From Phycisphaerae bacterium (GTDB lineage Bacteria > Planctomycetota > Phycisphaerae > UBA1845), in assembly GCA_963666835.2 (NCBI GenBank), contig CAXXGO010000006.1, positions 2,208,001 through 2,272,000 on the forward strand: DNA of 64,000 nt, written 5' to 3'. Below the pieces are notes generated by a model, which was not told the origin of the DNA, made no database searches, and worked only from the letters and a program-made list of their open reading frames with translations. Below, piece by piece: positions 28,382-55,267 of this stretch. Positions within the stretch are counted from its first letter, which is position 1. Each line of letters starts with the position of its first letter. Made by a program: the position numbers and the translations under genes.

Positions 28382-31300
28382 ATGAAAAGGACGTATCACG
28401 GACGAGATCGAAGCCGCCTGAGGCGCGTGCCGCGGCCTCCGTGCTCGCGGGGGCGACCGGGGATCGCCGGCGTTTTCGAGCATGGGCCATCTGTGCGGCC
28501 TCCGCGTTTGACGGGGCGACCGTGGGGGATGCTTCGGCCTATCGCGGGTGGGATAGCCCTGGCCGTGGGGTTGGGGATGCTGATCACGCTGGCGTTCTTC
28601 CCGCAGGTCGAGGCCCGCACGTCGGAAGGCCCCGAGCTTACCGGGGAAGAGCCGTACGTTGCGGTGGTCGATCCGCGGGACGGCCCCGACCCGGCCGAGC
28701 CGGAGCGGGGAGTGCTGCGGATTCGGGTGGTTACCGACGTCGGAATCCTGTTGATCCACGACGGCGGCGGCACCGCGGAGAATCCCGGCCCACCGGCGGA
28801 GTATGCGGATCAATGGCAGGAGCTTGACGACCCGTATGCACCTGCAGATTCGCTTGAGTACCCGAGCGCGCCGCCGGAGTACGCGGGTCTATGGCAAGAC
28901 CCCGATGACGCGACTGCGTTGGAATCGGAGGACTGGGCCGACGAACCGAGTGCGGAATCCGAAGAGTGGGCCGGTGATCCGGCCGCTTGGGAGGATGAGG
29001 AATGGCCCGCCGAGCCGAGTGCTGCGGATTCCGAGGAGCGGGCTGACGAATCGAGTGCTCTGGAAAGGGGAGAATGGGCCGACGACTCGGCTGCGTTCGA
29101 ATCGGACGAATGGGCCGCTGGCTCCGCCGCCTTCGAACCGGAGCAATGGCCGGCCGACCAAGATGACGTTGACGCGGCAGCCGCCCCCGAGGCGGTCGAC
29201 GGGACGAGCGGCGCGTACGTCGCCCTCTGGCACGATTTCGAGAGCCATCGGCTCTTCGTGTTCGAACGCCCGATCTTCGAGATGTTGGACGTCGGCCATG
29301 CGGTCGTAAACCTCGAGCGCGATCTAGGAATCGACGCGCAGAGCCTGGCCGCCGAGGTCGCGGTAGTCTCCGAGGCGATAGACGCGGCCTGGTCGCAAGA
29401 CGAAGACGCCACCACGTGGGAACGAGCCAGCGTGGAGATGATCGAGTACCTGCTGGCGTTCGACCCCCACGGCCACCCTGACCGAGCAGACCCTCCGCCG
29501 CTACGCCCCTGGAAGAGCATAGAGTGCGACGGGCTCATGCGGCTCGGGGCGCTTGGGTGGCAGGTTCTGTTTTTAGGTGACCTTTCGAATTGTGTTCCAA
29601 CTGGCGGCTGTACGGGACCATGCTGCGACGATCCGGACCCCTGCTGTGGAGACCCGGACCCATGCTGTGGCAGTTCGGACCCTTGCTGCGGCGATCCCGA
29701 CCCATGCTGCGGCAGCTCGGACCCTTGCTGTGGCGATCCGGACCCCTGCTGCGGCAGTTCGGACCCCTGCTGCGGCGATCCCGACCCATGCTGCGGTAGC
29801 TCGGACCCCTGCTGTGGCGCGGACCCGTGCGATCCGGTCTGCGGTAATCCTTGCCTGTGTTTGAGCTGTGACGACGGCAATCCCTGCACGGTTGACACGT
29901 GCGATCCGGATACCGGGTGTAGCCACGAGGACATGTCCTGCGGGAGCGGGAATGGAAGCTGCTGCAACCCGCCTGCGGATTGCTGCAACGGAGTATGCTG
30001 CGCGGTAGGTGGAAGTTGCTGCGGCAGCGGCTGTTGCGACCCAGGCCGGGAGTGCTGCGAAGGCGAAACCACGTGCTGCGCGGTGGGTGGAAGCTGCTGC
30101 AACGACGAATGCTGCAATGGCCCCTGCTGCCAAGGTAATTGCTGCCCAGCGGAGAATTCCTGCTGCGGGAGCAACTGCTGCGCTGCAGGCCGGGAGTGCT
30201 GTGAAGGCGAAACCACGTGCTGTGCGGTGGGTGGAAGCTGCTGCAACGACGAATGCTGCAATGGCCCCTGCTGCCAGGGTAATTGCTGCCCAGCGGAGAA
30301 TTCCTGCTGCGGGAGCAACTGCTGCGTTGCAGGTCGCGAGTGCTGTGAAGGCGAAACCGTGTGCTGCGCGGTGGGCGACGTTTGCTGCGGCGACGAATGT
30401 TGTGATGAGGATCGTTGTTGCGGAAACGGGGAGTGTTGCGCGGAGGAGTGTGAGGAGTGCCTGGACAACGGGTCGCTGTCGGGCGGAGCGGTAAGTGTGG
30501 TACCGCAGGTAGTGTGCATCGGGCAGACGATCACCTTTGCCATCGACGGCGTGGTCGATAGCGGCGGTCTGAAGCGGGTTGATTGCTCCAGCACCATCGA
30601 CCTTCCGGCCGTGGAGCCGAGCTACACGTGGGTGATCACGACGCCGGACTCGACCACGGAAAGCGGCTCGGGTGCGTCGGCCAACGTCACAACCGACCAG
30701 GCCGGAGTCTACTCATGCACCTTCACGGCCACCGCCAACCGCGACTGCCCGCCGGCGGATCTGAACGTCGGTCCGGCGACGAAGCAACTGGCGTTTGCGG
30801 CCGAGCTGACGCTTGACCCCTCGTCAATCTCGGCATTTGCCGGCTGGGGCGGGCCGAACTATAGATACTCGCGGATCACGGTAGAGTGGGACCCGCCCGA
30901 GTGCGAGGGACGCGTGGAAATCGCGGAACTCGAGCCGGCCGGGGATTACGTTCCGCCGAACGACGGATGGGTGACAAAGGATGGCGATCACTGGGTCTAT
31001 GAAGCGTTTGCCGAGCCGCAGGATGCATTATGTCCGGAGGCCGTGCGCGTGTGGGTGGCGGCCTTCCAAGGCGATACGGAGGTGGCTCGCCGGAGTATTC
31101 TCGTGCTCCCGGTGCATACGTTCTGGACGACCGGGCACCAGCACGGCCCAGGCGCCCAGCAGCACCCGCCGGACAACGACGACTTCTGGAACGACTACGA
31201 CTTCCTGCGCTGGAAGTACGCCGCGGTTCACGCGACGACGGGAGGGACTTTCGCCGCTGTAAGGATCAGCAATAATCCCTGCGTTGACTGCCGTACCGGC

Positions 31301-31570
31301 CTGTTTACCTGGGTTTGTGTGCCCGCATGCACGCATGACGATGGAAGTGTCGATTTTGGCACGGGTGCGTTTGCCGGATCCGAGAACAGTGCAGCCAGCA
31401 TGATTGGCCACGAACTCACGCACACAATTGGTGCGACTGAGTGTCAGGCATATACATGGGAGTTCAATAACGATGCCGCTACCGGCATCTTTCCGTGCGA
31501 TGCCGACTATCTTGCAGATGTTGTGCAGAAGCTAAACTGCGAGTGCAGCGGGATTGGGTGTCCGGAGTAG
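28382..31570 (+). CDS. Full-length Cys-rich exported protein (putative polymorphic toxin carrier) with C-terminal HExxH metallopeptidase-like domain; start may be 28529
   Basis: Signal-like GIALAVGLGMLITLAFFPQVEA; acidic Trp repeats; CC repeats; CDDGNPCTVDTCDP (Dictyostelium-type) repeat; Ig/PKD-like anchor; C-terminal GHELTH (31409-31423)...ECQAY. Confidence 0.8.
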   Translation: MKRTYHGRDRSRLRRVPRPPCSRGRPGIAGVFEHGPSVRPPRLTGRPWGMLRPIAGGIALAVGLGMLITLAFFPQVEARTSEGPELTGEEPYVAVVDPRDGPDPAEPERGVLRIRVVTDVGILLIHDGGGTAENPGPPAEYADQWQELDDPYAPADSLEYPSAPPEYAGLWQDPDDATALESEDWADEPSAESEEWAGDPAAWEDEEWPAEPSAADSEERADESSALERGEWADDSAAFESDEWAAGSAAFEPEQWPADQDDVDAAAAPEAVDGTSGAYVALWHDFESHRLFVFERPIFEMLDVGHAVVNLERDLGIDAQSLAAEVAVVSEAIDAAWSQDEDATTWERASVEMIEYLLAFDPHGHPDRADPPPLRPWKSIECDGLMRLGALGWQVLFLGDLSNCVPTGGCTGPCCDDPDPCCGDPDPCCGSSDPCCGDPDPCCGSSDPCCGDPDPCCGSSDPCCGDPDPCCGSSDPCCGADPCDPVCGNPCLCLSCDDGNPCTVDTCDPDTGCSHEDMSCGSGNGSCCNPPADCCNGVCCAVGGSCCGSGCCDPGRECCEGETTCCAVGGSCCNDECCNGPCCQGNCCPAENSCCGSNCCAAGRECCEGETTCCAVGGSCCNDECCNGPCCQGNCCPAENSCCGSNCCVAGRECCEGETVCCAVGDVCCGDECCDEDRCCGNGECCAEECEECLDNGSLSGGAVSVVPQVVCIGQTITFAIDGVVDSGGLKRVDCSSTIDLPAVEPSYTWVITTPDSTTESGSGASANVTTDQAGVYSCTFTATANRDCPPADLNVGPATKQLAFAAELTLDPSSISAFAGWGGPNYRYSRITVEWDPPECEGRVEIAELEPAGDYVPPNDGWVTKDGDHWVYEAFAEPQDALCPEAVRVWVAAFQGDTEVARRSILVLPVHTFWTTGHQHGPGAQQHPPDNDDFWNDYDFLRWKYAAVHATTGGTFAAVRISNNPCVDCRTGLFTWVCVPACTHDDGSVDFGTGAFAGSENSAASMIGHELTHTIGATECQAYTWEFNNDAATGIFPCDADYLADVVQKLNCECSGIGCPE
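29621..29827 (+). repeat. About ten 21-bp coding repeats (CCGDPDP/CCGSSDP)
   Basis: Alternating heptapeptide units read directly from the sequence. Confidence 0.9.
30044..30331 (+). repeat. Two 144-bp coding repeats (GRECCEGETTCC...CCGSNCCxA); a third unit start at 30332 begins the shared anchor
   Basis: Units start at 30044, 30188 and 30332. Confidence 0.9.
30332..30778 (+). repeat. 447-bp shared anchor, copy 1 of 5 (others at 33325-33771, 37998-38444, 41832-42278, 51340-51786)
   Basis: GRECCEGET...CLDNG...VVPQVVCIGQTI...SYTWVIT...GVYSC...CPPAD..PA is near-identical in all five copies; sequences diverge within a few codons after it. Confidence 0.95.
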
Positions 31571-31591
31571 ATCAGACTATTGGAGTCAGCT

Positions 31592-33115
31592 ATGATACGA
31601 GTATCAACATTGCGGAAAGCAACGCTTGCACTGTGTGTGTTTTCTTGCAGCCCACTGTGCGCGTTGGACGTGTGTGTAGCACAAGAGCAAGACGTAGTCT
31701 CTAGTGTTCTTCCCTTGAGTGCGACTCCTGTGCCAACTCCGGGGACTACTATCAGGAAGACGTTTCATTCGACAGTGGAGTGGGAAGGGCAGGAGTACTG
31801 CGCACCTGATGGGGCAACTGTTCTGATGGAGGTGATCACAACGCCCGCAACCGACACAGACACGCGTGCAAAAGCACTTCAGTGTTTGAGCCGGTTGCGA
31901 AGCAGAGAGATTACTTCGCGACTAATAACTTTATACGACGTTCTGGAGAAACGCGAGGAAAGGCTCGGGATTATACGATGCCTGACGCTTTCTGAGGATC
32001 CACGGGCTCTGGCATTGTTTACACGTGTGCTGGAAAGCGAAGACGACAAGGTGCAGCGATTATCTGCCGCCAGCAGTTTGGCACAATGGAACGTACGTAG
32101 GGGGGCTGCGGAGCTGGTGGAGCTTCTCGACTGTAGCGAGGTGCTCCCTGGACCCACACGAAGGCAGTATGTTTGGGACAGCGCCCTTGATTTGTTTCTC
32201 ACGAAGAACGAGCACAAGGGATGGGGGTTTCCGGCAAAGGCGATTAGAGAAAAGATCTCAGCCAGGGCAGCCCTGAATGAGCACGAGAAGTTACAGCTCT
32301 ACATCGCGGAGATCAAGAAGTGGTTCACAGCGAACGAGCAGCGTTTTCCGGAGTGGAAACTCGGTGACCCACTGCCTGCGGCGCCGGAGTTACCACCGAT
32401 TCCCCCTGGGCCGGAAAGCACGTTACCGCTGAGCGCGGATTTCACACCGCGCCCGACAGTCTGGACAGTGGGCGAGACAGGGGAGGAAGAACTTCTCTGG
32501 AAAGGCGAGCGCTATAGGGCGGCGGAGGGAGTCGATCTTCTCATGAATGTCGCCCTGGAACCCGGTAGCGTGAAGGATCGGGCTGTTGCTCTTCGCCGCC
32601 TGGAGAGGTTTGCAGGCCGCCTGAGAAATACAGAACGTATCGCTCAACTGTTGGAGCTGTACGAACGACTGTCGGAGCGGTCGGAGAGAGTTGCTGCTCT
32701 GTTCTGCTTGGCCTATAGCGCAGATCCGCGAGCGCTCCCTCTGTTTGCAGAAACGCTGGCCAAGGATGATGGAGAGGATCTCCGCCTTCCGGCTGCGTAC
32801 GGGCTGGCAGTGTGGAATGTGCGTTACGGGGTCGGTGAGCTTATAGAACTGCTGTCAGTAGCAAAGACGAGGGAAACCGCGATTTTGCTTAGGCAGCTCA
32901 ATCAAGGGAAGTCGTGGTGGATGCCGGAGTCGGACCTTTTTGCCATCGCTCGTGTCCCCAACAGAGCGGAGAATGATGCGTTTGATGCGAGCTATGCGGA
33001 ATTGAAGAAGTGGTTCGCGGAGAACGAGCACCGCTTCCCGGAGTGGAAACTCGGCGACCCATTGCCGAAGGTGACGGAGAAAGAACCGGAGACGCAAGGA
33101 TCGGCGACCGAGTGA
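31592..33115 (+). CDS. Exported HEAT-like repeat protein, internally duplicated; candidate immunity protein 1
   Basis: RBS GGAG; signal-like N-terminus; two halves each with DPRAL.LF...LA.WNVR...KKWF..NE.RFPEWKLGDPLP. Confidence 0.75.
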   Translation: MIRVSTLRKATLALCVFSCSPLCALDVCVAQEQDVVSSVLPLSATPVPTPGTTIRKTFHSTVEWEGQEYCAPDGATVLMEVITTPATDTDTRAKALQCLSRLRSREITSRLITLYDVLEKREERLGIIRCLTLSEDPRALALFTRVLESEDDKVQRLSAASSLAQWNVRRGAAELVELLDCSEVLPGPTRRQYVWDSALDLFLTKNEHKGWGFPAKAIREKISARAALNEHEKLQLYIAEIKKWFTANEQRFPEWKLGDPLPAAPELPPIPPGPESTLPLSADFTPRPTVWTVGETGEEELLWKGERYRAAEGVDLLMNVALEPGSVKDRAVALRRLERFAGRLRNTERIAQLLELYERLSERSERVAALFCLAYSADPRALPLFAETLAKDDGEDLRLPAAYGLAVWNVRYGVGELIELLSVAKTRETAILLRQLNQGKSWWMPESDLFAIARVPNRAENDAFDASYAELKKWFAENEHRFPEWKLGDPLPKVTEKEPETQGSATE

Positions 33116-33267
33116 ATCGATACCCGGCCACGCGGTGCCGGCGACTGGCCCGCCAGTATAGAGGCTCGAGGGATCTGGCGTGGCGTGACCGATTGTAGAC
33201 GTTGACTTATTGCTACCCCGCGGCACCGGGCGGGTGATTCCGTTCGGCGCCGCGGGTGGTTTGCGCG

Positions 33268-34455
33268 ATGCCCGGTGACAGTTCGCGGGCAGTGGCGGAT
33301 GTCTTTTGGCTTCCGTTGTGCCCGGGCCGGGAGTGTTGTGAAGGCGAGACCACGTGCTGCGCGGTGGGCGACGTTTGCTGCGGCGACGAATGTTGTGATG
33401 AGGATCGTTGTTGCGGAAACGGGGAGTGTTGCGCGGAGGAGTGTGAGGAGTGCCTGGACAACGGGACGCTGTCGGGCGGAACGGTCACTGTGGTGCCGCA
33501 GGTAGTGTGCATCGGGCAGACGATCACCTTTACCGTCGACGGCGTGGTCGATAGCGGCGGTCTGAAGCGGGTTGATTGCTCCAGCACCATCGACCTTCCG
33601 GCCGTGGAGCCGAGCTACACGTGGGTGATCACGAAGCCGGACTCGACCACGGAAAGCGGCTCGGGTGCGTCGGCCAACGTCACAGCCGACCAGGCCGGAG
33701 TCTATTCGTGCATCTTCACGGCCACCGCCAACCGCGACTGCCCGCCGGCGGATCGAGACATCGGCCCGGCGACCGGCACGGCGGATGGCGCGTATCTGGA
33801 CTTGACAATGCCAAACCCTGGAGCGGTTTTGACGCTGGGGAACGATCTCCTGGTTGAGTATGAGGTCGGGCCGTCCAACGGCAGTGGATTCGATTCTGTC
33901 GAACTGGAGATCAGCAACGCCTTCGGTAACCAAGTGTTCGTGTTGGACGGTCTACCATCCACGCCCGGGAATCACTCGGTGGTCTGGGCCGACGGACGTT
34001 GGAACGTGACCTACCCGGGAACGTTCGCAAACCCGAACAACGGGCCTTACGAAATCAAGCTCATCGGGCAGCAGAGCATCTGTCCCGACGACGAGGCGTC
34101 AACATCGGTATTTACGGAACTCGTAATCGAGGCGGACGTCAAAGATGACATGCCCGGTGGCGCGACGGCAACTCGCAGCGCCGGCTTGGATGACATGCTC
34201 GATGCGCTCGAGATCGTGATGAAGCTGGGGACGGTTGAGACGATAATCTCCGGCCCCGCGGGGATTACCGTAACAGGGCCAGACTCGGCCGACAAGCATG
34301 TTAGGGCTGATGCCCCCGTCCTCAATACGCTTCAGGACGGAGCCTACGACGTGTTGTTCCGCAATCTCCGCGACGAGATCGGCAACTTCGCCGACAGCGA
34401 CGGAAACGCGAGCAATGGAATACAGCCAATAACCTTCACATTGGAGCTACGCTGA
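33268..34455 (+). CDS. Orphan cassette 2: anchor plus FlgD/Ig-like C-terminal domains (5'-truncated)
   Basis: Anchor at 33325-33771; no signal peptide or clear RBS; C-terminus LQDGAYDVLFRNLRDEIGN...ITFTLELR. Confidence 0.72.
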   Translation: MPGDSSRAVADVFWLPLCPGRECCEGETTCCAVGDVCCGDECCDEDRCCGNGECCAEECEECLDNGTLSGGTVTVVPQVVCIGQTITFTVDGVVDSGGLKRVDCSSTIDLPAVEPSYTWVITKPDSTTESGSGASANVTADQAGVYSCIFTATANRDCPPADRDIGPATGTADGAYLDLTMPNPGAVLTLGNDLLVEYEVGPSNGSGFDSVELEISNAFGNQVFVLDGLPSTPGNHSVVWADGRWNVTYPGTFANPNNGPYEIKLIGQQSICPDDEASTSVFTELVIEADVKDDMPGGATATRSAGLDDMLDALEIVMKLGTVETIISGPAGITVTGPDSADKHVRADAPVLNTLQDGAYDVLFRNLRDEIGNFADSDGNASNGIQPITFTLELR

Positions 34456-36104
34456 TGACGGTGATCAAGAAACGCGCGATCAACATCCGTTCGTCGCGGA
34501 TAATGCGTCGAACACCCCTGGTCCTCTCCATCGCGGCATGCCTCTCTGCCGCGACATGCGACAGGAATGGGCCAAAGACTGAAGCACGGCCCGGGTCCGA
34601 AACCAAGGCGCCGGCCGCACATCCCGAACACCAGGCGTTTCACCACGAGATGACCGAAGCCTATGAGCGTGCAGAGTATACGCGGGCACGAGAGCTTGCT
34701 CGCGAGCATCTGACGCGAGACCGTGAGAGGTGGCTTACCGCCAAGTCGGACAGCGATCGCAATGGGGTGTGGGTGCGGATTCTGGCCGTTCTGAGGTCGA
34801 TGCTGGATTCGGAGCGGTCACTCCCACCGGAAGAGAGGTTCGGGGCTGATCCGGTCCTCACCGGGTTAGTACATGATCTGGTCCTTCAACTCCGAGAGCC
34901 CTCTCGGGCGATCATCGCTCGCGAACCCGAGCGAATGAGAATCATGAAGACGATGTACCATGCGGTAGTACGGGATTGGTTGTTGGTTCGCGCGGAGTGT
35001 GTACCGCGCGTCCAATGGGAAGACTTGTATGCTACATTCCAATCGGAACTGCGTGAGCAGGGATTCGACTCCGCCGACGCGATACTGGCGTGCTCTAACT
35101 CGAGCAGTCCAAAGAACCGTTCGGCGTTGGCCAAGCGTCAAGTCGAAACCGCACGCGGCCCCGTGCCTTCCGCTCCTCAGCATACTGCAGGGTCCGCCGC
35201 CGAAGACGCTCATTCTAGGCGCAGAGTGTTCTGCTACGATGTTAACGATGCCTATGCGCGTGGCGACTATGCGTTAGCTCGCACGTTGGCGCGCCGCCAC
35301 TTGGACCGAAACCGGCAGACTCTGAAGACTGCGAAGTCCGATACGCACCGGGAAGGGGCTTGGCGGAGGATACTCACAGTCACCAGTGCGGTCCTTCACC
35401 ACGAAGAGAAGGCTCCGCGTGCGGAATCGATGGTCAACGACCCTGAGTTTGCCGCAGCGTTGGAGGCGTCACTTCTTGAGATCCGCACGCCTGCGCGCGC
35501 GTTCATTGCCCGGAATCCGGCCCGAACCAAGTTCCTTCACGTGTCCCTTTGTGAAGCTGCGAGAATGTTGCTTGTCCTTCGTGCCGATATGCTGTCACGC
35601 AGTGAATCGGAGGAGCTGTTCTCCACGTTTGGACCGGAGTTGCTTGTGCAGGGTTTCGACCGGCTCGATGCCGTTCTCGCGGCAGAACCACCGGCACCCG
35701 CGCCGGGAGAGAAGATTCGAACCGTCAGCCAACCCGAAGCGGATCGAATTGTCGAGTCGATTCGGCAGTTCTACCGGGGAATGGCCACCAAGAACACCAG
35801 GCTGCTTGGATTGGCAACCGGTCTGCCGCCCGGCGAGTGCGAGGTGTTCCTTGAAGCCTTACGTGCTGAGTTACAGGAGGACGGCTACGTCGACCTCAAG
35901 AGCTTCTCGATCCCCGCGTTACGGAGCGCGGACGTTCTCCTGCGAGAGGCTCCGCGGCAGCCTGACACCTATTCGCTCACAATAGAGGACGTGACCTTCA
36001 CGATGGAGCTTCCGGATGGGCGGCATGTCACGCGGGTTACGAAGAAACTGTTCATGATACGGCTCAACCGTGGCGGGGAATGGACAATCTTGCCACCGAA
36101 GTAG
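34455..36104 (+). CDS. Putative lipoprotein with a duplicated helical domain; candidate immunity or partner protein
   Basis: TGATG coupling to cassette 2; LSIAACLSAATC lipobox-like; two copies of AY.R..Y..AR.LAR.HL.R.R....TAKSD..R.G.W.RIL. Confidence 0.72.
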   Translation: MTVIKKRAINIRSSRIMRRTPLVLSIAACLSAATCDRNGPKTEARPGSETKAPAAHPEHQAFHHEMTEAYERAEYTRARELAREHLTRDRERWLTAKSDSDRNGVWVRILAVLRSMLDSERSLPPEERFGADPVLTGLVHDLVLQLREPSRAIIAREPERMRIMKTMYHAVVRDWLLVRAECVPRVQWEDLYATFQSELREQGFDSADAILACSNSSSPKNRSALAKRQVETARGPVPSAPQHTAGSAAEDAHSRRRVFCYDVNDAYARGDYALARTLARRHLDRNRQTLKTAKSDTHREGAWRRILTVTSAVLHHEEKAPRAESMVNDPEFAAALEASLLEIRTPARAFIARNPARTKFLHVSLCEAARMLLVLRADMLSRSESEELFSTFGPELLVQGFDRLDAVLAAEPPAPAPGEKIRTVSQPEADRIVESIRQFYRGMATKNTRLLGLATGLPPGECEVFLEALRAELQEDGYVDLKSFSIPALRSADVLLREAPRQPDTYSLTIEDVTFTMELPDGRHVTRVTKKLFMIRLNRGGEWTILPPK

Positions 36105-36118
36105 AGAGGAGCGTACTA

Positions 36119-37738: not shown

Positions 37739-37940
37739 AAGGCTGGAATCGGGCTGGGAAGGAGTAAGAAGGGCTGAGAATCCCTGTTAGTGCGGTTTGG
37801 GGGTAGGATAGCCACGCCGCCGCTGACGGTTCGGATGCAAGAGGACGCAGAACGCGTACTGGTCACTATAGCCGCTAATCTAATGCCGCTCCTCGGCACC
37901 GGGCGGGTCACTCCGTTCGGTGCCGCGGGTGGTTTGCGCG

Positions 37941-43703: not shown

Positions 43704-43750
43704 TCGGGCGACAGCGGTTGTTGTATTGTGAGAGGTGCTGCAATCGGAGG

Positions 43751-44008: not shown

Positions 44009-44065
44009 TCGGAGGATTGGCCTTCCTTTCACAAGGAGTTGAGGCAACCGCGAAAGGAGATGGAT

Positions 44066-44884
44066 ATGAATATACTACAGCTATTTGGATGTATCACATT
44101 ACTATCGGGGATAGTGGTTGTGGCTGGAGGATCTCAAGCGGCGAGCCAGACGGCTCGGCTCAAAGAACGGGAGGCGGAGTTCTACCATCTAGATTTTGGC
44201 CGGAGTCTCGTTCGCGACCGCCCCAGCAACGAGTTCGTGGATCTGACGTTCGAGGCGATTCCGACGGAACTCGTCGATCAGATGTACAGTTACCTGGCCT
44301 TCTCGGTGCATTGGGCAGCTCATCCGCAAAAGCAGGGAGAGGGGCGCGTGGGAGGCGATTTCCGTGTACGTGCCTACGCTGCGCACGGCAAGACAGAGGA
44401 CGACCTGATCGAGTACGCGTGGACGCGGTTCGGACAGGACCTTCGTCTAGTTGCGGGGCTCAATGCGATGCGACTGGACATTAACTTGGGCGACGTCTTA
44501 CGAAATCGAGAAATGGACGATTACGGGTCCAACGCCGTGGCAAGAACCAAGGGTCTTCTTTCGCAGATCCTCCGACTGGCGGGGGTTGATAGAGATGGAC
44601 GCAGTTTCGAGGTCTATCTTCCCTGGCCGGAGGAGCTCGTAGAAGGAACACGGTTCTGCTCGAATTTGGATACTAATCTCATACGCATGAAGAAGTGGCA
44701 CGAACGCGTTGACGTGTATGTCCATGATGGGATCCTGTCCGTTTTGATCTACAAGAAGGTGGAACAGTTGATTGGGTATCAAGACGGCTCGACGTGGTTT
44801 CCCAGCGAGTTTCGGGAATTGGTGCACAGGAAGGCCGAGAAACAGGCCAAGGCGGGCCAATCCGAGAGCGTCAGCAAAGAGTAG
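44066..44884 (+). CDS. Exported hypothetical protein; candidate immunity protein 4
   Basis: RBS AAGGAG 6 nt before ATG 44066; signal MNILQLFGCITLLSGIVVVAGGSQA. Confidence 0.72.
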   Translation: MNILQLFGCITLLSGIVVVAGGSQAASQTARLKEREAEFYHLDFGRSLVRDRPSNEFVDLTFEAIPTELVDQMYSYLAFSVHWAAHPQKQGEGRVGGDFRVRAYAAHGKTEDDLIEYAWTRFGQDLRLVAGLNAMRLDINLGDVLRNREMDDYGSNAVARTKGLLSQILRLAGVDRDGRSFEVYLPWPEELVEGTRFCSNLDTNLIRMKKWHERVDVYVHDGILSVLIYKKVEQLIGYQDGSTWFPSEFRELVHRKAEKQAKAGQSESVSKE

Positions 44885-46912: not shown

Positions 46913-46941
46913 CAGGAGAGAGACTCTTCGGAGATAGAATC

Positions 46942-48177
46942 ATGAACATGACACGTAAGAGTTTTACATGCATCACGCGGGCGGTTGTGTTTCTCGCCTT
47001 GCCGCCATTCTTCGCGGGCACAACAAGGGCCGGGCAGGATCTGGCGGCACTGGAACGCGTGGCGAAAGCCGGTGGCGAGGAGTATATCCGATTGCGCAAC
47101 GCGCTGCTGAAAACACATCCCGAGCCGTGGGATGTCGCCAATGCCGCAGCGCATTCTTGGGATACCGGGATTGCGGCCTTCATTCTGAATGAGCGACAGA
47201 AGGCGGCGGATATGTTTGTTAAATGGGATGCGCTACGCCTGCGGGTTTATGCTGATGGGACGTCCTACGCACTCCACCAAGGCACGTCAGACGCCGCCGC
47301 GGCATTTCTACTTGAGAAGATATGGAAGAGTCCTTCGGAGAGGGAACGCGACAGAGCCTACCGGCAGTTCTGCCGGGGGCACAAGGAGGAGTTCGCTCAT
47401 GCCGGCGATCCAGCATTATGGACCGCTACCTGGGAGCAGTGTGAGGACGAGCAAATCCGATACGCAGTGCTTTATCAGGTTTGCGCTTCCTGCGATCCCT
47501 CCACGCAGCCAATTATCGTGGGGCTCCTAGCGGAAGAGGGCGACTCACTGCCTGTACGTCGGTTGAGGGCTCAGTGCATGAGTGGCCTGTGGCACCGCGA
47601 TACGGAGCAGACTGTGGACGCTGTTCTCGGGGTCTGGGATGTTCTGAGCAAAACCGGCCACTGGAAATACAGCGGTGCGGGCGTACTGGCCAACAACAGC
47701 AGTGAACGGGCCCGTCGGTTTGTGCATGATCTTGTGCTCGATTCTACTGAGGACGAGGATCTGCGGGCCGAGATAGTGATCAAGTGCTGCCTTCGGCCGC
47801 ACCCGGGTGACCTCGAAGTGTTCCGCAGGTTCTTTACCGGGCCGGGGTCGGATAAAATGAAAAAGGACGCACTACGCGGGCTCTACAGGTATCCGCTCAG
47901 CGGCATTCGGCCGCTTCTTCGAGAACTCCTGGTCGAGTCGACCGACCCTGTGATGATCGCCGCCGCGGCACTGACCTTCACCCAAGCGCACCGCTGGGCA
48001 AAAGACGTGCCCGAAGCGACGAAGGCTGAGGATATTGCATTGTTTGAGGAAGTGCTGCGTACGAAGGAGGGCTTATCGGGCGCTACGCGCGTCCACATAG
48101 ACATGTACATCCAGGAGCTCCGGGCCAAGCCGGGCGATCCGCGGCCGACGCTGCCGGATCCTCCGCAGGATAGGTGA
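46942..48177 (+). CDS. Exported HEAT-like protein, paralog A (candidate PAD immunity)
   Basis: RBS GGAG; signal-like N-terminus; helical repeats; ends RAKPGDPRPTLPDPPQDR. Confidence 0.75.
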   Translation: MNMTRKSFTCITRAVVFLALPPFFAGTTRAGQDLAALERVAKAGGEEYIRLRNALLKTHPEPWDVANAAAHSWDTGIAAFILNERQKAADMFVKWDALRLRVYADGTSYALHQGTSDAAAAFLLEKIWKSPSERERDRAYRQFCRGHKEEFAHAGDPALWTATWEQCEDEQIRYAVLYQVCASCDPSTQPIIVGLLAEEGDSLPVRRLRAQCMSGLWHRDTEQTVDAVLGVWDVLSKTGHWKYSGAGVLANNSSERARRFVHDLVLDSTEDEDLRAEIVIKCCLRPHPGDLEVFRRFFTGPGSDKMKKDALRGLYRYPLSGIRPLLRELLVESTDPVMIAAAALTFTQAHRWAKDVPEATKAEDIALFEEVLRTKEGLSGATRVHIDMYIQELRAKPGDPRPTLPDPPQDR

Positions 48178-48345
48178 TGCACCGGAAGCCGGCGTGGCGT
48201 GCCCGCATCCGCCCGCCACGCCGGCGTTTCTTGCACGGTCCAACGTACGGAATCGGCGAGATTGGATATCGGCGAAACGCGGCATCCAGCGGTTGCGTCC
48301 GGCCAGATGGTCAGGGCCATGCGGGCAGTGTTCGGAGACGGAAGC

Positions 48346-49581
48346 ATGAGCATGAGACATAAACGTATCATCTGCACCGTAGGAGTCTTCGCGACCGTCG
48401 CCTTGCCGCTGTTCTTGGCATTGACGACGCGAGGAGGAGAGGATTTCGCGCGACTGGAGCGCGTGGCCAGAGCCGAAGGCGACGAGTATGTCCAATTGCG
48501 CGATGCGCTACTTGAGACGCACCCTGAACCGTGGGACGTTGGTGTTGCGGCGGGCCAGTCGTGGGATGCCGGGGTGATGGCGTTCATCCTGAACGCCCGC
48601 CGTGGTGCAAAGGACACGTTTAGGGGTTGGGACGCACTAAGTCCTCGGTACACTGCATCTGGTCGAAGTTATAGCCTCTCTGGCAAGGATTGGACGAGCG
48701 TATGGGCATTCCTGATCGAGAAGATATGGAAGGGGGAGACGGCTAGAGAGAGGGACGGTGCGGACTATGATCTCCAACAATACTGCAGAGAGAGCACCAT
48801 AGAGCTGGGGCATCTGGCCCTCTGGCATGCCATATGGGATGGTTGTGATGATGAGCGGTTGCAGTCTGTTGCGGTGTTCCAGTTGTGTTCGAATCCGGAT
48901 CCATCCACCCAGCCAATTATCGTGGAGCTTCTGAAGGGCGGGAATGGCTCGTTGGACGCGCGTCGACTGAGGGGTCAGTGCATGAGTGGCCTGTGGTACC
49001 GGGATACGGAGCAGACTGTGGACGCTGTTCTCGGCGTCTGGGATGCTCTGAGCAAGACCGGCCACTGGGAATACAGTGGGGCGGGCGTACTGGCCCGCAC
49101 CAGCAGCGAACGCGCCCGGCGGTTTGTCTATGACCTTGTGCTCGATTCTAGTGAGGACGAGAGGCTGCGCGCCGAGACGTTGATGCACTTCTGCCATCGC
49201 CCGCAGCCGGGCGACATCCAAGTGTTCCGCAAGTTCTTTGCGGGACCGGGTTCGGATAAGATGAAGTGGGATGCACTGGGTGGGCTGTACAGGTATCCGC
49301 TCAATGACATTCGCCCGCTTCTTCGTGAACTTCTCATGGACTCGACTGACCCGAAGATGATCGCGAGTGCCGCGTTTGCGCTGAGCAAGGCCGACCTCTC
49401 TACGAAGGATGTGCCCGATGCGACGAAGGCGGAGGATATTGCACTGTTCGAGGAGGTTCTGCGAACAAGAGAGGACTTGCATGAAACGGCTCGCGTTCAC
49501 ATAGACCTGTACATTCGGAGGCTCCGGGCCAAGCCGGGCGATCCGCGGCCGACGCTACCGGATCCTCCGCAGGATAGGTGA
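48346..49581 (+). CDS. Exported HEAT-like protein, paralog B
   Basis: Tandem paralog of 46942-48177 with the same C-terminal peptide. Confidence 0.75.
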   Translation: MSMRHKRIICTVGVFATVALPLFLALTTRGGEDFARLERVARAEGDEYVQLRDALLETHPEPWDVGVAAGQSWDAGVMAFILNARRGAKDTFRGWDALSPRYTASGRSYSLSGKDWTSVWAFLIEKIWKGETARERDGADYDLQQYCRESTIELGHLALWHAIWDGCDDERLQSVAVFQLCSNPDPSTQPIIVELLKGGNGSLDARRLRGQCMSGLWYRDTEQTVDAVLGVWDALSKTGHWEYSGAGVLARTSSERARRFVYDLVLDSSEDERLRAETLMHFCHRPQPGDIQVFRKFFAGPGSDKMKWDALGGLYRYPLNDIRPLLRELLMDSTDPKMIASAAFALSKADLSTKDVPDATKAEDIALFEEVLRTREDLHETARVHIDLYIRRLRAKPGDPRPTLPDPPQDR

Positions 49582-49749
49582 TGCACCGGAAGCCGGTGTG
49601 GCGTGCCCGCATCCGCCCGCCACGCCGGCGTTCCTTGTATGGTGCAACGTACGGAATCGGCGAGATTGGATATCGGCGAAACGCGGCATCCAGCGGTTGC
49701 GTCCGGCCAGATGGTCAGGGCCATGCGGGCAGTGTTCGGAGACGGAAGC

Positions 49750-50982
49750 ATGAGCATGAGACATAAACGTATCATCTGCACCGTAGGAGTCTTCGCGACC
49801 GTCGCCTTGCCGCTGTTCTTGGCATTGACGACGCGAGGAGGAGAGGATTTCGCGCGACTGGAGCGCGTGGCCAGAGCCGAAGGCGACGAGTATGTCCAAT
49901 TGCGCGATGTGCTACTTGAGACGCACCCTGAACCGTGGGACGTTGGTGTTGCGGCGGGCCAGTCGTGGGATGCCGGGGTGATGGCGTTCATCCTGAACGC
50001 CCGCCGTGGTGCAAAGGAAGAATTCAAGGGTTGGGACGCGCAACGTCCTCAGCCGACAGCCTCTGGCCATAGTTACGACCTCTGCAGCAGGGATTGGACT
50101 AGCGCATGGGCATTCCTGATGGAAAAGACCTGGAAAGGGGAGACGGCTAGAGAGAGGGACGGTGCGGACTATGACCTCCAACAATACTGCAGAAGCGCCA
50201 TAGGGTCGGGTTACCTGGACCTTTGGCACGCCATATGGGACGAGTGCGACGATGAACGGTTCCGCTTGGTTGCGGTGCTTCAGTTGTGTTCGAATACGGA
50301 TCCATCCACCCAGCCAATTATCGTGGAGCTTCTGAAGGGCGGGAATGGCTCGTTGGACGCGCGTCGACTGAGGGGGCAGTGTATGAGTGGCCTGTGGTAC
50401 CGGGATACGGAGCAGACTGTGGACGCTGTTCTCGGCGTCTGGGATGCTCTGAGCAAGACCGGCCACTGGAAATACAGTGGGGCGGGCGTTCTGGCCAACA
50501 ACAGCAGCGAACGGGCGCGGCGGCTTATCCATAAGCTCGTACTCGACCCTTCCGAGGACGAAAAACTACGCGCTGAGACTGTGTGCCGGTGCTGCCTGCG
50601 GCCGCACCCGGGCGACCTCGAAGTGTTCCGCAAGTTTTTTGCCGGACCGGGTTCGGTTAAGATGAAAAGCGATGCACTACGCGGATTGTACAGGTATCCG
50701 CTCAATGGTATTCGGCCGCTTCTTCGAGAACTCCTGGTCGAGTCGACCGACCCTGGGATAATCGCCGACGCGGCAGTGACCTTGACCCAAGCGCACCGGT
50801 GGGCGAAAGACGTGCCGGAAGCGACGAAGGCTGAGGATATCGCATTGTTTGAGGAAGTGCTGCGTACGAAGGAGGGCTTATCGGGCGCTACGCGCGTCCA
50901 CATAGACATGTACATCCAGGAGCTCCGGGCCAAGCCGGGCGATCCGCGGCCGACGCTGCCGGATCCTCCGCAGGACAGGTGA
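49750..50982 (+). CDS. Exported HEAT-like protein, paralog C (B/A mosaic)
   Basis: N-half nearly identical to B, C-half nearly identical to A. Confidence 0.75.
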   Translation: MSMRHKRIICTVGVFATVALPLFLALTTRGGEDFARLERVARAEGDEYVQLRDVLLETHPEPWDVGVAAGQSWDAGVMAFILNARRGAKEEFKGWDAQRPQPTASGHSYDLCSRDWTSAWAFLMEKTWKGETARERDGADYDLQQYCRSAIGSGYLDLWHAIWDECDDERFRLVAVLQLCSNTDPSTQPIIVELLKGGNGSLDARRLRGQCMSGLWYRDTEQTVDAVLGVWDALSKTGHWKYSGAGVLANNSSERARRLIHKLVLDPSEDEKLRAETVCRCCLRPHPGDLEVFRKFFAGPGSVKMKSDALRGLYRYPLNGIRPLLRELLVESTDPGIIADAAVTLTQAHRWAKDVPEATKAEDIALFEEVLRTKEGLSGATRVHIDMYIQELRAKPGDPRPTLPDPPQDR

Positions 50983-51003
50983 TGCACCGGAGGCCGGTGT
51001 GGC

Positions 51004-51283
51004 GTGCCTGATAACGACGACGAAGGGAAGGTGATTGTCGACAACACAGCGCCGACCGTAACGGGGTTTCAACCGCTCTAGAAGGCTGGAATCGGGCTGG
51101 GAAGGAGTAAGAAGAGCTGAGAATCCCTGTCAGTGCGGTTTGCGGGTAGGATAGCCACGCCGCCGCTGACGGTTCGGATGCAAGAGGACGCAGAACGCGT
51201 ACTGATCACCATAGCCGCTAATCTAATGCCGCTCCGCGACACCGAACGGGTTGATCCGTTCGGTGCCGCGGGTGGTTTGCGAT
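51004..51283 (+). repeat. Duplicate of 37661-~37940 (last 25 codons of the secreted peptidase gene plus downstream intergenic and leader)
   Basis: GTGCCTGATAACGACGA...TTTCAACCGCTCTAGAAGGCTGGAATC...GCCGCTAATCTAATGCCGCTCC is present at both places. Confidence 0.9.
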
Positions 51284-51327: not shown

Positions 51328-53031
51328 TGTTGCGCTGCAGGTCGGGAGTGCTGTGAAGGCGAAACCGTGTGCTGCGCGGTGGGCGACGTTTGTTGCGGCG
51401 ACGAATGTTGTGATCCGGAACGTTGTTGCGGGAACGGGGAGTGTTGCGCGGAGGAGTGTGAGGAGTGCCTGGACAACGGGTCGCTGTCGGGCGGAACGGT
51501 CAGTGTGGTGCCGCAGGTCGTGTGCATCGGGCAGACGATCATCTTTTCCGTCGACGGCGTGGTCGATAGCGGCGGTCTGAAGCGGGTTGATTGCTCCAGC
51601 ACCATCGACCTTCCGGCCGTGGAGCCGAGCTACACGTGGGTGATCACGAAGCCGGACTCGACCACGGAAAGCGGCTCGGGTGCGTCGGCCAACGTCACAA
51701 CCGACCAGGCCGGAGTCTACTCATGCACCTTCACGGCCAACGCCGACCGCGAGTGCCCGCCGGCGGATCTCGAACTCGCCCCGGCGGTCGGCACGGCGGA
51801 CGAGTTGGTGGAAGTGACCGTTGAGGCAGAGGACGGGCTCATCGATTGCATGGAAGGACGAGTCGTTACGTTCACGGCAACGGTTGAGGGTGTTGTGCCG
51901 GAGAGCCAGAAGCCTATCGAGTACACTTTCCACTTTGAGCACGCGGATGGTACGCCGTGGACCCATACAATCGTGTCGCACATGTTGCAGGTGGACTACG
52001 ATGCCATCGCGTCACAGGTGCCGGAGGGCAATCCGGATCACTTCTTCGATACACCCATCTACGTCGAAGTGCAACTCCAGGCGTGCGATCCCGTGACGTC
52101 GGATACGCTGGATATTCGAGTCTATGAGCTGTGGATCAACGACTTTCGGCACCACGCCAGTGGCCGAGACTGGCAGGTTGTTGTTGGCGAGGCGATCGAG
52201 TATGCCGCCACGGCGTCATCGGACTGCACCAGCTGGGATTGGGATATGGAAGATGGGTTCCCCGATGTGTGGAATCCGTCGGGAGGTAATGCGAAGACGG
52301 GCGCCAACATGGTAATCCCTTTTACCGATCTTCCGGGGCTGGATGGCGATGATTTCGGCGACGAGTATGGCACCGTTAACGTGTTCTGCGAGGACGGGGA
52401 GGGAAACAACCACCGAGTCTACTCCGCCGATCTCGCGCCGCCGAGACTCGCCAAGGTGTTCTCTGATCCGGCGCTGGACACGAGTGGCAGCCCGCCTAAC
52501 CAAAGTTCTCCTCCATGTTGGTTTCTCTTCTGGCAGAATGGCGCATGTCCCGACCTAGATGAGTTCGAATACAGGCACATGAATGCGTACGGAGAGTCTC
52601 AAGTCATCTTCGGCTGGTTCTGGGATACACACATCCTTAGGGTCGGCATCCCAGCGGGCGGGACGCATTATCCCAATGGCCTATTGATCAACGGCGTGCA
52701 ATATGGAGGTGCATCGGGAATCGACTGCTGCGCGGAAGTGGTCGTTCATGAGATGCACCACAACGTCCTCTCCGTCGAAATAAACGACGGAGCGACAGAT
52801 ACTGATCCGGCGAATCCGCCCGCGGCACCGCACATCGGCGTTTGGTTGCCCGATGCCAGAGAACCCGGACTGGGATGCTCGAACGCGAATAAGGACACTT
52901 TCAATCTGGCAATTCTCAAGGCTCCGGTATACATTGGATATGGCGATAATGAGTACTCTGCCGTAACCACGGCACATGGAAGCATCGGTGTTGCAGCGAA
53001 GGACTGGTCTAAAGGAGGAAAGCAATGGTAG
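51328..53031 (+). CDS. Orphan cassette 5: anchor plus HExxH metallopeptidase-like C-terminus (5'-truncated, in-frame TAG upstream at 51307)
   Basis: Anchor at 51340-51786; EVVVHEMHH at 52747-52761, DNEYSA; ends DWSKGGKQW. Confidence 0.75.
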   Translation, partial: CCAAGRECCEGETVCCAVGDVCCGDECCDPERCCGNGECCAEECEECLDNGSLSGGTVSVVPQVVCIGQTIIFSVDGVVDSGGLKRVDCSSTIDLPAVEPSYTWVITKPDSTTESGSGASANVTTDQAGVYSCTFTANADRECPPADLELAPAVGTADELVEVTVEAEDGLIDCMEGRVVTFTATVEGVVPESQKPIEYTFHFEHADGTPWTHTIVSHMLQVDYDAIASQVPEGNPDHFFDTPIYVEVQLQACDPVTSDTLDIRVYELWINDFRHHASGRDWQVVVGEAIEYAATASSDCTSWDWDMEDGFPDVWNPSGGNAKTGANMVIPFTDLPGLDGDDFGDEYGTVNVFCEDGEGNNHRVYSADLAPPRLAKVFSDPALDTSGSPPNQSSPPCWFLFWQNGACPDLDEFEYRHMNAYGESQVIFGWFWDTHILRVGIPAGGTHYPNGLLINGVQYGGASGIDCCAEVVVHEMHHNVLSVEINDGATDTDPANPPAAPHIGVWLPDAREPGLGCSNANKDTFNLAILKAPVYIGYGDNEYSAVTTAHGSIGVAAKDWSKGGKQW

Positions 53032-54014
53032 GCGTGTTCTGTCGACGTGGCGCGTTTTTATGGTATCTGGCGACTGCAGTGGCGCCCATGGGTGGGCTTG
53101 GCCGCGTTGCGGCGGACGGACCAGAGCCTGGGTGCGATCGTCTCGCTCTTGAGTTGGTTTCCCCTGATGTCAAAGCACGCGAGGCGGCACTCGCCGAGTT
53201 GAATCGCGTGAGACGTCGGTCGAAGGGTGAATTCGACTTAGAACATAAGCTCCTGCTCTTTAAGCAGATTGTGGCATTGGACTCGCCAAACTACGCGTAC
53301 AGGGCGACCTGCTTCCTCGCAAAACTACCCGTGGATGATGAGGTTCTGACGTTGGCAAAGCGGGCCGTTGCGGACGAGAAGTGTGGATTGAGTCTGCTGA
53401 TCGGCAGTCTGGCGTACGCCGAAGGACATGCGCCGGAGGAGTTCGGCAGCTTCTTCAGAAGTCGCAAGTACGAGGAACATGACAAGGCAGTTTTGGCGCT
53501 GTTTGCAGCTTCGGAGGCGGTCCAGGAAATCAGACATGCGCACTTCGGGAGCTTGGTTGATAGCTACCTGACGTGGCAGCCGGGAGACGTGGCCGACACC
53601 GAGAACCCGTTCCGGCCGGCCATCCTGCGCGCCGGTAACTCCATCGTTCCCGAATTGCATGCCGCCTTGAGCACGTGTGGGCAAAACCGGGGATCGGCTA
53701 TCAAGGTCGTGTGGATACTGGGAGAGATCGGTAGTCCTGAGAGTTTCGACCTGTTACTGACTGAGTATTTGGCGGCCCCGTCTCACAGAGTTGGCATCTC
53801 CCTCGGGGCATGCCTCGGTAGCCTTAACGTGGAGCGACTTTTTGCGGAGATAGACGATACGCGGGTGCTGAAACAGCTTCTCAGTGACGTTTATGGGCGT
53901 GATTGGGGGCGTGTCGAGAGTTTCGCGTTGCCTGCAATAAGGAACGATATGATCAAGAACCTGCAAGTGATACGGGAGAACTGCAAACGCCGGAGTGTAC
54001 CGATGTTGGGCTAG
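53025..54014 (+). CDS. Exported HEAT-like protein; candidate immunity protein 5
   Basis: Start overlaps the cassette stop (ATGGTAG), RBS AAGGAGG; signal-like N-terminus; SPDVKAREAALAEL, WILGEIGSPESF. Confidence 0.72.
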   Translation: MVGVFCRRGAFLWYLATAVAPMGGLGRVAADGPEPGCDRLALELVSPDVKAREAALAELNRVRRRSKGEFDLEHKLLLFKQIVALDSPNYAYRATCFLAKLPVDDEVLTLAKRAVADEKCGLSLLIGSLAYAEGHAPEEFGSFFRSRKYEEHDKAVLALFAASEAVQEIRHAHFGSLVDSYLTWQPGDVADTENPFRPAILRAGNSIVPELHAALSTCGQNRGSAIKVVWILGEIGSPESFDLLLTEYLAAPSHRVGISLGACLGSLNVERLFAEIDDTRVLKQLLSDVYGRDWGRVESFALPAIRNDMIKNLQVIRENCKRRSVPMLG

Positions 54015-54160
54015 AGCGAACAGTGAGCTGGAGTATCGGTTCATAGGAAGGTCGCGACTGCTGCGTGCGGCGCGATCGGTTGTGGGCGGATGGACATGGT
54101 CCGTCGCTCGTCGGACCGACGCAGTGAGCTGTCGGACGAAGGCCGAAGGAGGAAAAAGGA

Positions 54161-55267
54161 ATGCTAGTATTCAGTATGGTACGGATCGCAGCCCGGTTGC
54201 GATTGTCCATGATTGTCACGGCTATGCTCGTGGTTATCGCGAGCGCGCACGCTCAGCAAGCGAAACGGATGACCGCGATGGCGTGTGATGACGCACGCGT
54301 GGCGCAGATCAATGCATGGGACGAGAAGACGATTCTGCGCGAGTTGGCCCGAATCCTCGGCACTCAATCCGGCGCCGAGGTCGACTGCAACCGGGTCGTG
54401 CTAAGAAGGGTCCGCGATATGAGCCTCGTCGCCGCTGAGGAGCAGTTAAGGACGTTCGTTGGCGAAGTGCGTCCGCCCTCCAAGTCGCACATTCGCGGTG
54501 AGAGCGATCCGCGATGGGCGATTAAGTATGATGTGATGGCTACCTTGCTGAGCTTTGATTTGGACAGGCGCGGGCTCGACAGTATCGAGGATCGCGCTGC
54601 ATACCTGTTTGCAGCAGTGGAGAAAAAGACGACGACAAAGAGCGATGTGATTAATGCCGAAATCATTTTGCTGCGAGATTGTGCGTCGGGGTTGACGGAC
54701 GTACTACTTAGAATGATCGACAGACCGGCTGGCGACGTGCTGCGGACTGTGGCGCTTGACGTTGGGCGAAATTCGGAGGATCTACGATTCGAGGATGAGC
54801 TTCTGGTGCGAATCGACGACATCCGAACGACCGACCCGGCTATGTATCGCCGGATGCTGGGCGTGCTTGGGGCGATCGGCAGCGAGAGGTCGGTTGCGTA
54901 CTTCGCCGGTCGTTTGAATGGTATTGACGGCGAAGAGAGGAGTGATGCGGCCAGCGGTCTGCGGCTTCTCGCGGCTCACGGGCGAACCAAGCAGGTGCGG
55001 GCGGCCGCCGATGAGGCACTCGCTCAGGAGGCTCCGGCCGCATCGGTGCCTGGGCAAGATAACCGAGATGGGGAGACGCCGGGGGAAGCCGACAGTCCGA
55101 GACGCGTCACGAAGGAAGAGAAGAAACCCAAGTTTGCACGGCCCGAGGAGGTCGGGGAAGACCTGTCCGGGTTGCCTTCGTCGGAACTACTGCGCCGGCT
55201 GGTTCGATCATCCGACAGGATTGAGCGCCGGAAGGCGGCGAAAACGCTCGGTGACAGAGAGCTCGGC
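54161..55267 (+). pseudogene. Exported HEAT-like protein truncated by a REP/RAYT scar (frame reads on to 55480)
   Basis: RBS AAGGAGG; signal ...ASAHA|QQ; LGAIGSERSV, ERSDAASGL; a new HEAT unit ERRKAAKTLGDRE runs into REP sequence at 55268. Confidence 0.65.

Follow-up and report, generated by a model that had tools for sequence, protein, structure and literature searches.

Toxin systems that swap the C-terminal tip of a conserved carrier protein are known mainly from proteobacteria and firmicutes, with mostly nuclease tips and cytoplasmic immunity. Main-text passages of Zhang et al. 2012 (PMC3482391) name planctomycetes as hosts of Sec-dependent polymorphic toxins. Here we describe a gene array in a 64,000-nt stretch of a Phycisphaerae genome (G000:C6:2208001-2272000; G000 is the host genome, and C6, C5 and C1 are its contigs), hereafter the window, whose coordinates are used throughout unless a contig or locus is named. 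The array is probably a polymorphic toxin/immunity system with a carrier class not described before, occurring mainly in one planctomycete family. An earlier note on this DNA had proposed a layout of this type, and several lines of evidence now support it: the variability of the protein tails, the covariation of tips with their downstream partner genes, the recurrence of arrays in other genera and the lack of any known carrier family. Four of the features by which polymorphic toxins are recognized were found: variable tails, a covarying downstream gene, truncated cassettes and a tip shared with another architecture.

The 16 long open reading frames (ORFs) called from 28241 to 55480 all lie on the + strand. 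Within them, a 447-nt repeat, which we term the anchor, occurs five times, starting at 30332, 33325, 37998, 41832 and 51340: once in a full-length gene, the carrier, and four times in 5′-truncated copies, the orphans. The anchor copies are 92-100% identical in pairwise DNA comparisons over positions 1-447, and in the next 33 nt pairwise identity collapses to 12-55%, with orphans 4 and 5 still sharing 76%. At the protein level, the anchors show no variation through the motif CPPAD and cannot be aligned beyond it. Five such near-identical copies of 447 nt, each in a unique flanking context, far exceed what chance would give. The variable anchor sites group the copies in conflicting ways, as expected if copies exchange sequence, and we propose the anchor as the target of recombination. 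Each variable C-terminus, or tip, is followed by a gene at a gap of 9, −1, 18 or −7 nt, or in orphan 4 of about 350 nt if the partner starts at 44057; one or two genes lie downstream of each truncated copy, with products that mostly have a signal-like start. The orphans begin MPGDSS.. and have no hydrophobic leader by eye in their translations, and an in-frame TAG stands upstream of orphan 5. The earlier note had seen the array in the same way, from the single strand, the one full-length and four truncated genes and the break just past CPPAD to the close or coupled gene after each cassette, the orphans without signal peptides, the stop just before the fifth cassette and an anchorless cassette for a protein-arginine deiminase (PAD). 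The genes and elements of the array are given below in order.

28241-31570, + strand: full-length carrier gene, from ORF and translation; 1109 aa on the longest reading, likely start 28382 or 28529
30332-30778, + strand: anchor copy 1, 149 aa; Cys-rich knot and putative Ig/PKD-like sandwich, ending R-D-C-P-P-A-D (from repeats, relatives and model)
30779-31570, + strand: tip 1, 263 aa; small domain with a zincin-type IGHELxH motif kept in all full-length members
31580-33115, + strand: partner 1, exported HEAT-repeat protein (HEAT_2 at 1.3e-9)
33256-34455, + strand: orphan 2, from ORF and repeat; anchor at 33325-33771, then tip 2 of 227 aa (relatives P0021 and P0150)
34455-36104, + strand: partner 2, ORF overlapping at its start with the orphan 2 stop and encoding a lipoprotein-like leader
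36080-37738, + strand: ORF for an exported protein with an HEVFH motif, without anchor
37920-40559, + strand: orphan 3; anchor at 37998-38444, followed by tip 3 (704 aa), which has 168-nt repeats and the motif HECGHGVHIEH
40578-41684, + strand: partner 3, ORF with a signal-like leader
41709-43703, + strand: orphan 4; anchor at 41832-42278, then tip 4, the C-terminal 349 aa of which form a Cys-containing domain common to DUF4157 proteins
44057-44884, + strand: partner 4, signal-like leader; a homologue follows a tip-4-type gene in locus L061
45053-46912, + strand: anchorless PAD cassette (PF03068 at 1e-61, 209.6 bits against a cut-off of 25)
46891-48177, 48199-49581 and 49603-50982, + strand: three tandem exported HEAT-like paralogues, 63-84% identical, with a period of about 1404 nt
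51004-51281, + strand: duplicated flank comprising the end of gene 36080-37738 and a hairpin, 95% identical to 37661-37938
51367-53031, + strand: orphan 5; anchor at 51340-51786, then tip 5 with an HEMHH motif; the in-frame TAG lies upstream
53025-54014, + strand: partner 5, ORF with overlapping start and weak HEAT matches
54161-55480, + strand: last gene of the run, exported HEAT-like protein (ORF, Pfam scan)

The carrier gene encodes, in order, a signal or transmembrane segment (around 28529-28615), acidic W/E/D repeats, a conserved N-domain common to about 15 relatives, DPCCG repeats encoded by 21-nt units (29583-29834), CC-rich repeats encoded by three 144-nt units (30017-30448), the anchor and tip 1. 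Its putative leader, read by eye, is hydrophobic and ends in VEA; full-length relatives likewise start with leaders. Scanned against Pfam and NCBIfam at E<=0.01, the protein falls in no family. The anchor was modelled with AlphaFold from a 17-sequence alignment, and the model reaches a pLDDT of 92.4 and is all-beta after the Cys-rich start. When searched with Foldseek, this model gives weak generic PKD/Ig-type matches, the best at E 0.011. The carrier had been described before as CC-rich plus Ig/PKD-like; the CC-rich repeats are present, and the Ig/PKD-like label for the anchor appears fair but loose because the fold matches are weak. Tip 1 is modelled poorly, with a pLDDT of 40 from a four-sequence alignment, and three of the four members of its family match PF13699 weakly, below the cut-off. 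The pair of a tip-1-type gene and a HEAT-repeat gene is kept in three loci (L052, L063 and L062). Partner 1 (31580-33115) is itself built from a duplicated unit of about 230 aa.

A full HMMER search with the anchor over 1.84 billion representatives yielded 169 proteins at E<=1e-3, 98 of them at E<=1e-10, the four best matches being the window's own proteins or near-identical ones. In the relatives, the match ends at R-[DE]-C-P-P, usually followed by G-P within a few residues (R[DE]CPPxxxxxGP), and then the sequences diverge. We clustered 127 tails of at least 100 aa, from 120 library proteins (three of them the window's orphans) and seven window sequences, and obtained 38 single-linkage clusters with 17 singletons; one cluster is the non-tip ORF 36080. 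An anchor-based search, of the kind called for by the earlier note, finds variable C-termini across homologues behind a sharp break at R[DE]CPP, and no fixed C-terminus. Pfam families recognized in the tips are PAD directly behind the anchor (P0023, P0037 and P0091), type I phosphodiesterase (P0013 and P0126), Peptidase_M15_3 (P0102) and a LAS-type HH_signal domain (P0072).

Within the order, 22 of 279 genomes carry the anchor; 18 of these come from a set of 100 other members of its own family, and three belong to two other families. Among 400 genomes sampled across the phylum it was found in G000 only, and a related-locus look-up returned one trivial 24-residue match. Two or more anchor copies spaced 2-4 kb apart occur in G565 (three loci), G625, G558, G570, G574 and G616, and the array-bearing relatives include one single-contig genome. 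We compared 26 loci from 17 other genomes after calling their ORFs. The order tip, small gene, truncated copy, small gene recurs in L048, L050 and L052, and truncated copies are also present in L064. In L050, a 1087-aa gene with leader and anchor is followed by a 327-aa gene, a truncated copy that keeps only the last 46 anchor positions before a new tip, and a 257-aa gene with a leader. Orphan arrays with linked downstream genes, as predicted from the window, are thereby seen in other genera.

Tips and partners covary. For this comparison we took 28 anchor genes, window included, in which the anchor end is complete and the tip measures 100 aa or more; in 27 of them an ORF on the same strand lies downstream at −101 to +253 nt. 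In the 351 pairs of loci, tip and partner are both homologous in 11, the tip only in 10, the partner only in none and neither in 330; related genomes are not independent, and we hence attach no P value to these counts. A hydrophobic N-terminal segment is present in 22 of the 27 partners on a crude scale, and partners that are mostly exported point to action outside the cytoplasm.

One tip domain also occurs in a different toxin-type architecture. Searched against longer proteins, the last 349 aa of tip 4 match 20: the window's own protein, ten carriers of this family's kind and nine others. The nine others consist of an N-terminal PF13699 (DUF4157/eCIS_core) domain, a middle part with PG_binding_1, OmpA or Tse3_N, and the tip 4 domain at the C terminus; they are 29-35% identical to tip 4 over more than 90% of the query, and their source names are Kaistia, Verrucomicrobiae and Chthoniobacterales. 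In the pairwise alignment, both sequences keep a Cys within G-x-x-C. The same kind of search found no sharing of tips 1 and 5 with other toxin architectures. PDB sequence searches with tips 3 and 4 gave no meaningful match, and a protein-atlas look-up for tip 4 gave weak leads to transglutaminase-like proteins (0.75-0.76) and DUF4280 (0.77).

The PAD cassette is also derived from this family. From its residue 31, the ORF aligns with the tail of P0023, that is, with tips found directly behind the anchor in relatives, and it is thus a tip that lost its anchor. The motif GEVHC is invariant in a six-sequence alignment of the PAD family, and we take its Cys to be the catalytic Cys of PAD. The pair of PAD and HEAT-like genes is kept in two other genomes (L049 and L064); the three HEAT-like paralogues behind the single PAD gene of the window (46891-50982) resemble a small poly-immunity run. 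In sequence reading, HExxH motifs are carried by tip 3, tip 5 and the gene at 36080-37738, which has no family in Pfam scans and no relative among the family tails. The view that the tips are protein-modifying enzymes rather than nucleases needs correction as an exclusive statement, given the tip 4 domain and the M15/LAS and phosphodiesterase tips. The last 78 nt of gene 36080-37738 and the following spacer are duplicated before orphan 5 (51004-51235 compared with 37661-37893, 95%), directly past the third HEAT paralogue, and this duplicated flank is a scar of rearrangement within the array.

A feature absent from the earlier note is a hairpin element about 60 nt before the anchor of each of the four orphans. 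The core consists of a stem of 22 bp, interrupted by a single bulge and closed by a 4-nt loop, and the element is found in the window at four places.

33212-33260, + strand: hairpin copy 1
37885-37933, + strand: hairpin copy 2
41719-41767, + strand: hairpin copy 3
51228-51276, + strand: hairpin copy 4, within the duplicated flank

A profile search of the genome at E<=1e-6 found 17 hairpin copies, 15 of them in three arrays: four in the array described here, eight in an Rhs orphan array (C6:1.06 Mb) and three in an array with a metzincin motif (C5), leaving two elsewhere. Thirteen of the 17 immediately precede a truncated toxin cassette and share its coding strand, and two stand before partner-like genes inside arrays; none is found before a full-length gene or behind the last module. 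The hairpin alignment pairs in 97.1% of cells. No stem pair shows a double change, and eight pairs vary on one side yet still pair (G-U to A-U, C-G to U-G). Similarity between arrays stops within a few bases past the 3′ foot of the stem, and within an array most orphans have a common cut point in the core. An in-frame ATG or GTG can be read by eye about 4-25 nt behind the hairpin. A search for the exact hairpin pattern in 40 relatives and in two large collections (genome_contigs and metagenome_contigs) found no copy. Rfam gave no match in the window at the gathering score and, in the Rhs-array stretch L001 at E<=1, only group II intron models; scans for consensus promoters and terminators did not flag the hairpin.

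The other two arrays differ in content from that of the window. The Rhs array (G000:C6:1058001-1081000; L001 and L002) consists of a full-length RHS-repeat gene and at least seven 5′-truncated orphans with different C-termini, and also has small membrane or zinc-ribbon genes. A group II intron is inserted in it (reverse transcriptase ORF at L001 7558-8976; Rfam matches at 7093-7313 and 8959-9034); the hairpin was considered as a part of this intron and that origin was ruled out, the intron ending about 160 nt before the hairpin. The third array (G000:C5:181000-194000, minus strand; L003) has a 660-aa gene bearing HExxHxxGxxH, followed by two long truncated paralogues, each past a hairpin, with exported TPR-like genes between the paralogues and an IS1595 (ISXO2-like) transposase at L003 10069-11019. 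The two outlying hairpin copies are diverged, at C1:1059948-1060005 (− strand) and C6:2312897-2312953 (+ strand); one lies behind a 1053-aa Laminin_B/PKD lipoprotein gene and the other between two minus-strand genes, and both keep an upstream part of about 60 nt that forms a second small hairpin.

The hairpin is a lineage-specific element tied to orphan modules. With three G-U pairs, its + strand fold is 5-9 kcal/mol more stable than that of the complement, making a role in the transcript or in single-stranded + strand DNA more likely than a duplex site. We rate the chances as evenly balanced that it is a boundary element acting in RNA, with several possibilities: termination of read-through, a 5′ stabilizer located past an AT-richer stretch that looks like a promoter, or masking of a GGUGG word that resembles a ribosome-binding site and forms part of the stem. 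We hold it to be rather doubtful that the hairpin is instead the joint of a cassette-moving mechanism common to unrelated polymorphic toxin loci, in which units of hairpin, linker, core fragment, tip and partner would be inserted and excised by a structure-specific recombinase, perhaps of the HUH/Y1 type. Such a joint would explain why the same element sits only at the 5′ edges of orphans in three different arrays of one genome, why most orphans of an array share a core cut point, and why similarity ends near the 3′ foot of the stem with no copy behind the last module; if it exists, it would amount to an integron-like way of stocking toxin arrays. Like integron attC sites, the hairpin is short and imperfect, is repeated at cassette boundaries and pairs better on one strand, but no integrase family was found among the window ORFs scanned and no GTTRRRY-type core is visible by eye. 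REP elements with their RAYT transposases offer a further comparison, REP being hairpins as well and the genome having nine matches to the Y1 transposase family (IS200-like); the copies described here, however, are not scattered, with 15 of 17 in three arrays, and none of the nine Y1 matches lies beside a copy.

These observations can be combined in the following proposal. The full-length gene would make a Sec-exported protein composed of a leader, acidic and Cys-rich spacers, a ‘pre-toxin’ module of Cys-knot and Ig-like domain, and an enzyme tip, which in this strain would be a small HExxH peptidase-like domain. Each tip would be paired with its own downstream, mostly exported partner, which would neutralize it in the periplasm of the producer. 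The four headless copies and the PAD cassette would form a reserve of other tip and partner modules, and homologous recombination at the 447-nt anchor would place another tip onto the exported gene; the partners of stored modules may go on protecting against kin. The + strand hairpin would mark the 5′ edge of each orphan, most likely as a module boundary in the transcript (a stop, a stabilizer or a block to translation) or, alternatively, as a recombination site. Targets outside the cytoplasm, such as the cell wall or envelope proteins, are suggested by the export of the partners and by tips that comprise peptidases, PAD and a domain riding with peptidoglycan-binding modules.

Public sequence runs bear on the integrity of the array; none of the runs listed as carrying it is an RNA run. 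Two studies have runs with contigs in which the unique parts of the cassettes recur at 0-2 differences, which argues against their invention by the assembly; these contigs are short and break at the repeats, and the order of the cassettes cannot be confirmed from them. Contig joints such as 48198 to 37661 were considered as signs of switching and are explained by paralogous parts or by the common hairpin. Contigs of a run from the second study skip 265 nt (43744-44008) between tip 4 and its partner and also diverge at 39107-39228 and 45719-45848, representing strain-level variation inside cassettes. That the repeats were mis-joined or inflated by the assembler is barely conceivable: they are long enough to break short-read assemblies, as the public contigs show, but diagnostic sites tell the copies apart, the flanks of each copy are unique, the cassettes recur in runs of both studies, and like arrays are present in other genomes, one of them a single contig.

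Several observations count against a toxin system, and some of them favour a different function for the same genes. No known secretion system or toxin transporter gene was found among the flanking ORFs scanned, and the N-terminal parts of longer relatives carry dockerin, Big_5, Glucodextran_B and CarboxypepD_reg domains, which are typical of surface or secreted enzymes too. Together with the exported partners, these findings would suit ordinary secreted or surface enzymes for feeding or remodelling, each with a periplasmic inhibitor or chaperone, the truncated copies being debris of tandem duplication; operons of a protease with its inhibitor are known, for example alkaline protease and its periplasmic inhibitor. 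We nevertheless judge this account unlikely. In debris, four or five tip ORFs would not have stayed intact together with intact matching partners, the extreme diversity of tips behind one module, with a sharp break and tip-partner covariation, is a polymorphic toxin signature, tip 4 also occurs in DUF4157-type proteins, and the arrays recur in several genera. Still less probable is variation of an adhesin or surface antigen, in which exchange of cassettes would alter an exposed end against phages or grazers, or alter binding, with the downstream genes as assembly helpers. An Ig-like module and Cys-rich spacers would suit a surface stalk, and the silent-cassette layout resembles antigenic variation loci, but the tips bear catalytic-type motifs (HExxH and GEVHC) and enzyme families rather than binding repeats, and helpers need no one-to-one covariation with tips.

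The polymorphic toxin reading has further points to answer. In 10 of the 21 locus pairs with homologous tips the partners are not detectably homologous, and at 215-550 aa the partners are large for immunity proteins. The orphan ORFs are intact and have an ATG or GTG past the hairpin, so they may be separately expressed paralogues rather than silent spares. Five related orphan junctions have no comparable inverted repeat, indicating that the hairpin is not needed for such arrays in general. No switch is seen in the data, the public contigs breaking at the repeats, and the toxicity of the tips and the protection by the partners are predictions.

Several other features of the window were recorded. 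A glycosyltransferase cluster lies directly before the array, and an exosortase (EpsH, 4.7e-60) and a DUF3485/EpsI-like gene lie directly past it (55958-57714); overall, the flanks consist of housekeeping and polysaccharide genes with this exosortase pair. Two tandem 97-nt repeats are found at the 3′ end of the array (55405-55614). On the minus strand they code a fragment, ..LRYGERNPVRAKVV, that matches the 3′ end of a Y1 transposase gene (C6:1415414-1415473, 90% over 60 nt), and their final 30 nt belong to a distinct short repeat, present in the genome in at least 15 copies. In an ORF of 912 aa at 12058-14796 (− strand), a Y1 transposase domain of the IS200-like type (2e-7) is oddly fused to methyltransferase and target-recognition domains of the MmeI type. 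A small protein encoded at 2704-3468 has four DUF7107/Dickkopf-like Cys-rich units and a cytochrome c domain.

Finally, the locus can be placed beside known polymorphic toxin systems. Family scans for RHS, haemagglutinin, LXG, PAAR, VENN and Hint motifs are empty at E<=0.01, and the earlier note had likewise seen no such motif. More specifically, the carrier has no RHS/YD repeats in Pfam and, by eye, no PxxxxDPxGL core end, and a scan of the same type gives 3.5e-18 for RHS_repeat in the genome's own Rhs gene, which served as a positive control; the CdiA features (haemagglutinin/FHA repeats, VENN and a CdiB transporter) are lacking in the array and 25 flanking ORFs; and LXG, PAAR and Hint domains have no Pfam or NCBIfam match. 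The likeness to Rhs is one of layout, with a full-length gene and then 5′-truncated copies that keep a piece of the core, tips that vary past a fixed boundary motif and a cognate gene directly downstream, and it extends to the same hairpin before the orphans of this array and of the genome's own Rhs array. The array departs from Rhs in its conserved module, a Cys-knot with an Ig-like domain that terminates in R[DE]CPP, in the export of its partners and in its tips, which are enzymes of extracytoplasmic type where Rhs tips are mostly nucleases. Orphan arrays of the CdiA-CT/CdiI and MafB kind similarly store tip/immunity pairs downstream and have a short homologous segment for replacement of the active tip (compare the general scheme in PMC3482391), but they differ from the present array, which has no haemagglutinin repeats, VENN, CdiB-type transporter or MafB N-domain, and apparently a Sec-type leader only. 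The DUF4157/eCIS_core proteins (PF13699) have the tip 4 domain as the C-terminal module in nine cases and are weakly similar to the tip 1 family; the carrier, in contrast, lacks PF13699 at E<=0.01, tip 1 alone falls below the cut-off, and the window has no contractile-injection genes.

Among the systems compared, the Sec-dependent ‘T2SS’ class of toxins, as described in passages of PMC3482391, resembles the array in having a signal peptide (a putative one here) as the sole trafficking signal, HExxH peptidase tips and a HEAT-repeat partner. Imm-HEAT is paired there with a restriction-endonuclease-fold toxin (Zhang et al. 2012, PMC3482391), and the partners here are exported. In 300,000 characters of that paper neither ‘arginine deiminase’ nor ‘cysteine-rich’ occurs, and its main-text passages do not name the R[DE]CPP module. 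Literature searches returned no paper joining ‘peptidylarginine deiminase’ and ‘polymorphic toxin’ and, for orphan toxin/immunity arrays in Planctomycetota, nothing relevant by title or abstract. To the known systems the locus would add a carrier specific to planctomycetes whose well-folded pre-toxin module and boundary motif are new, tips that seemingly act outside the cytoplasm, including a protein-arginine deiminase, exported repeat-protein partners, and about 30 tip families of unknown fold, each with a candidate inhibitor. The hairpin common to three unrelated arrays, the present one and the genome's own Rhs array among them, would provide a testable handle on how orphan cassettes are laid down, silenced or expressed.

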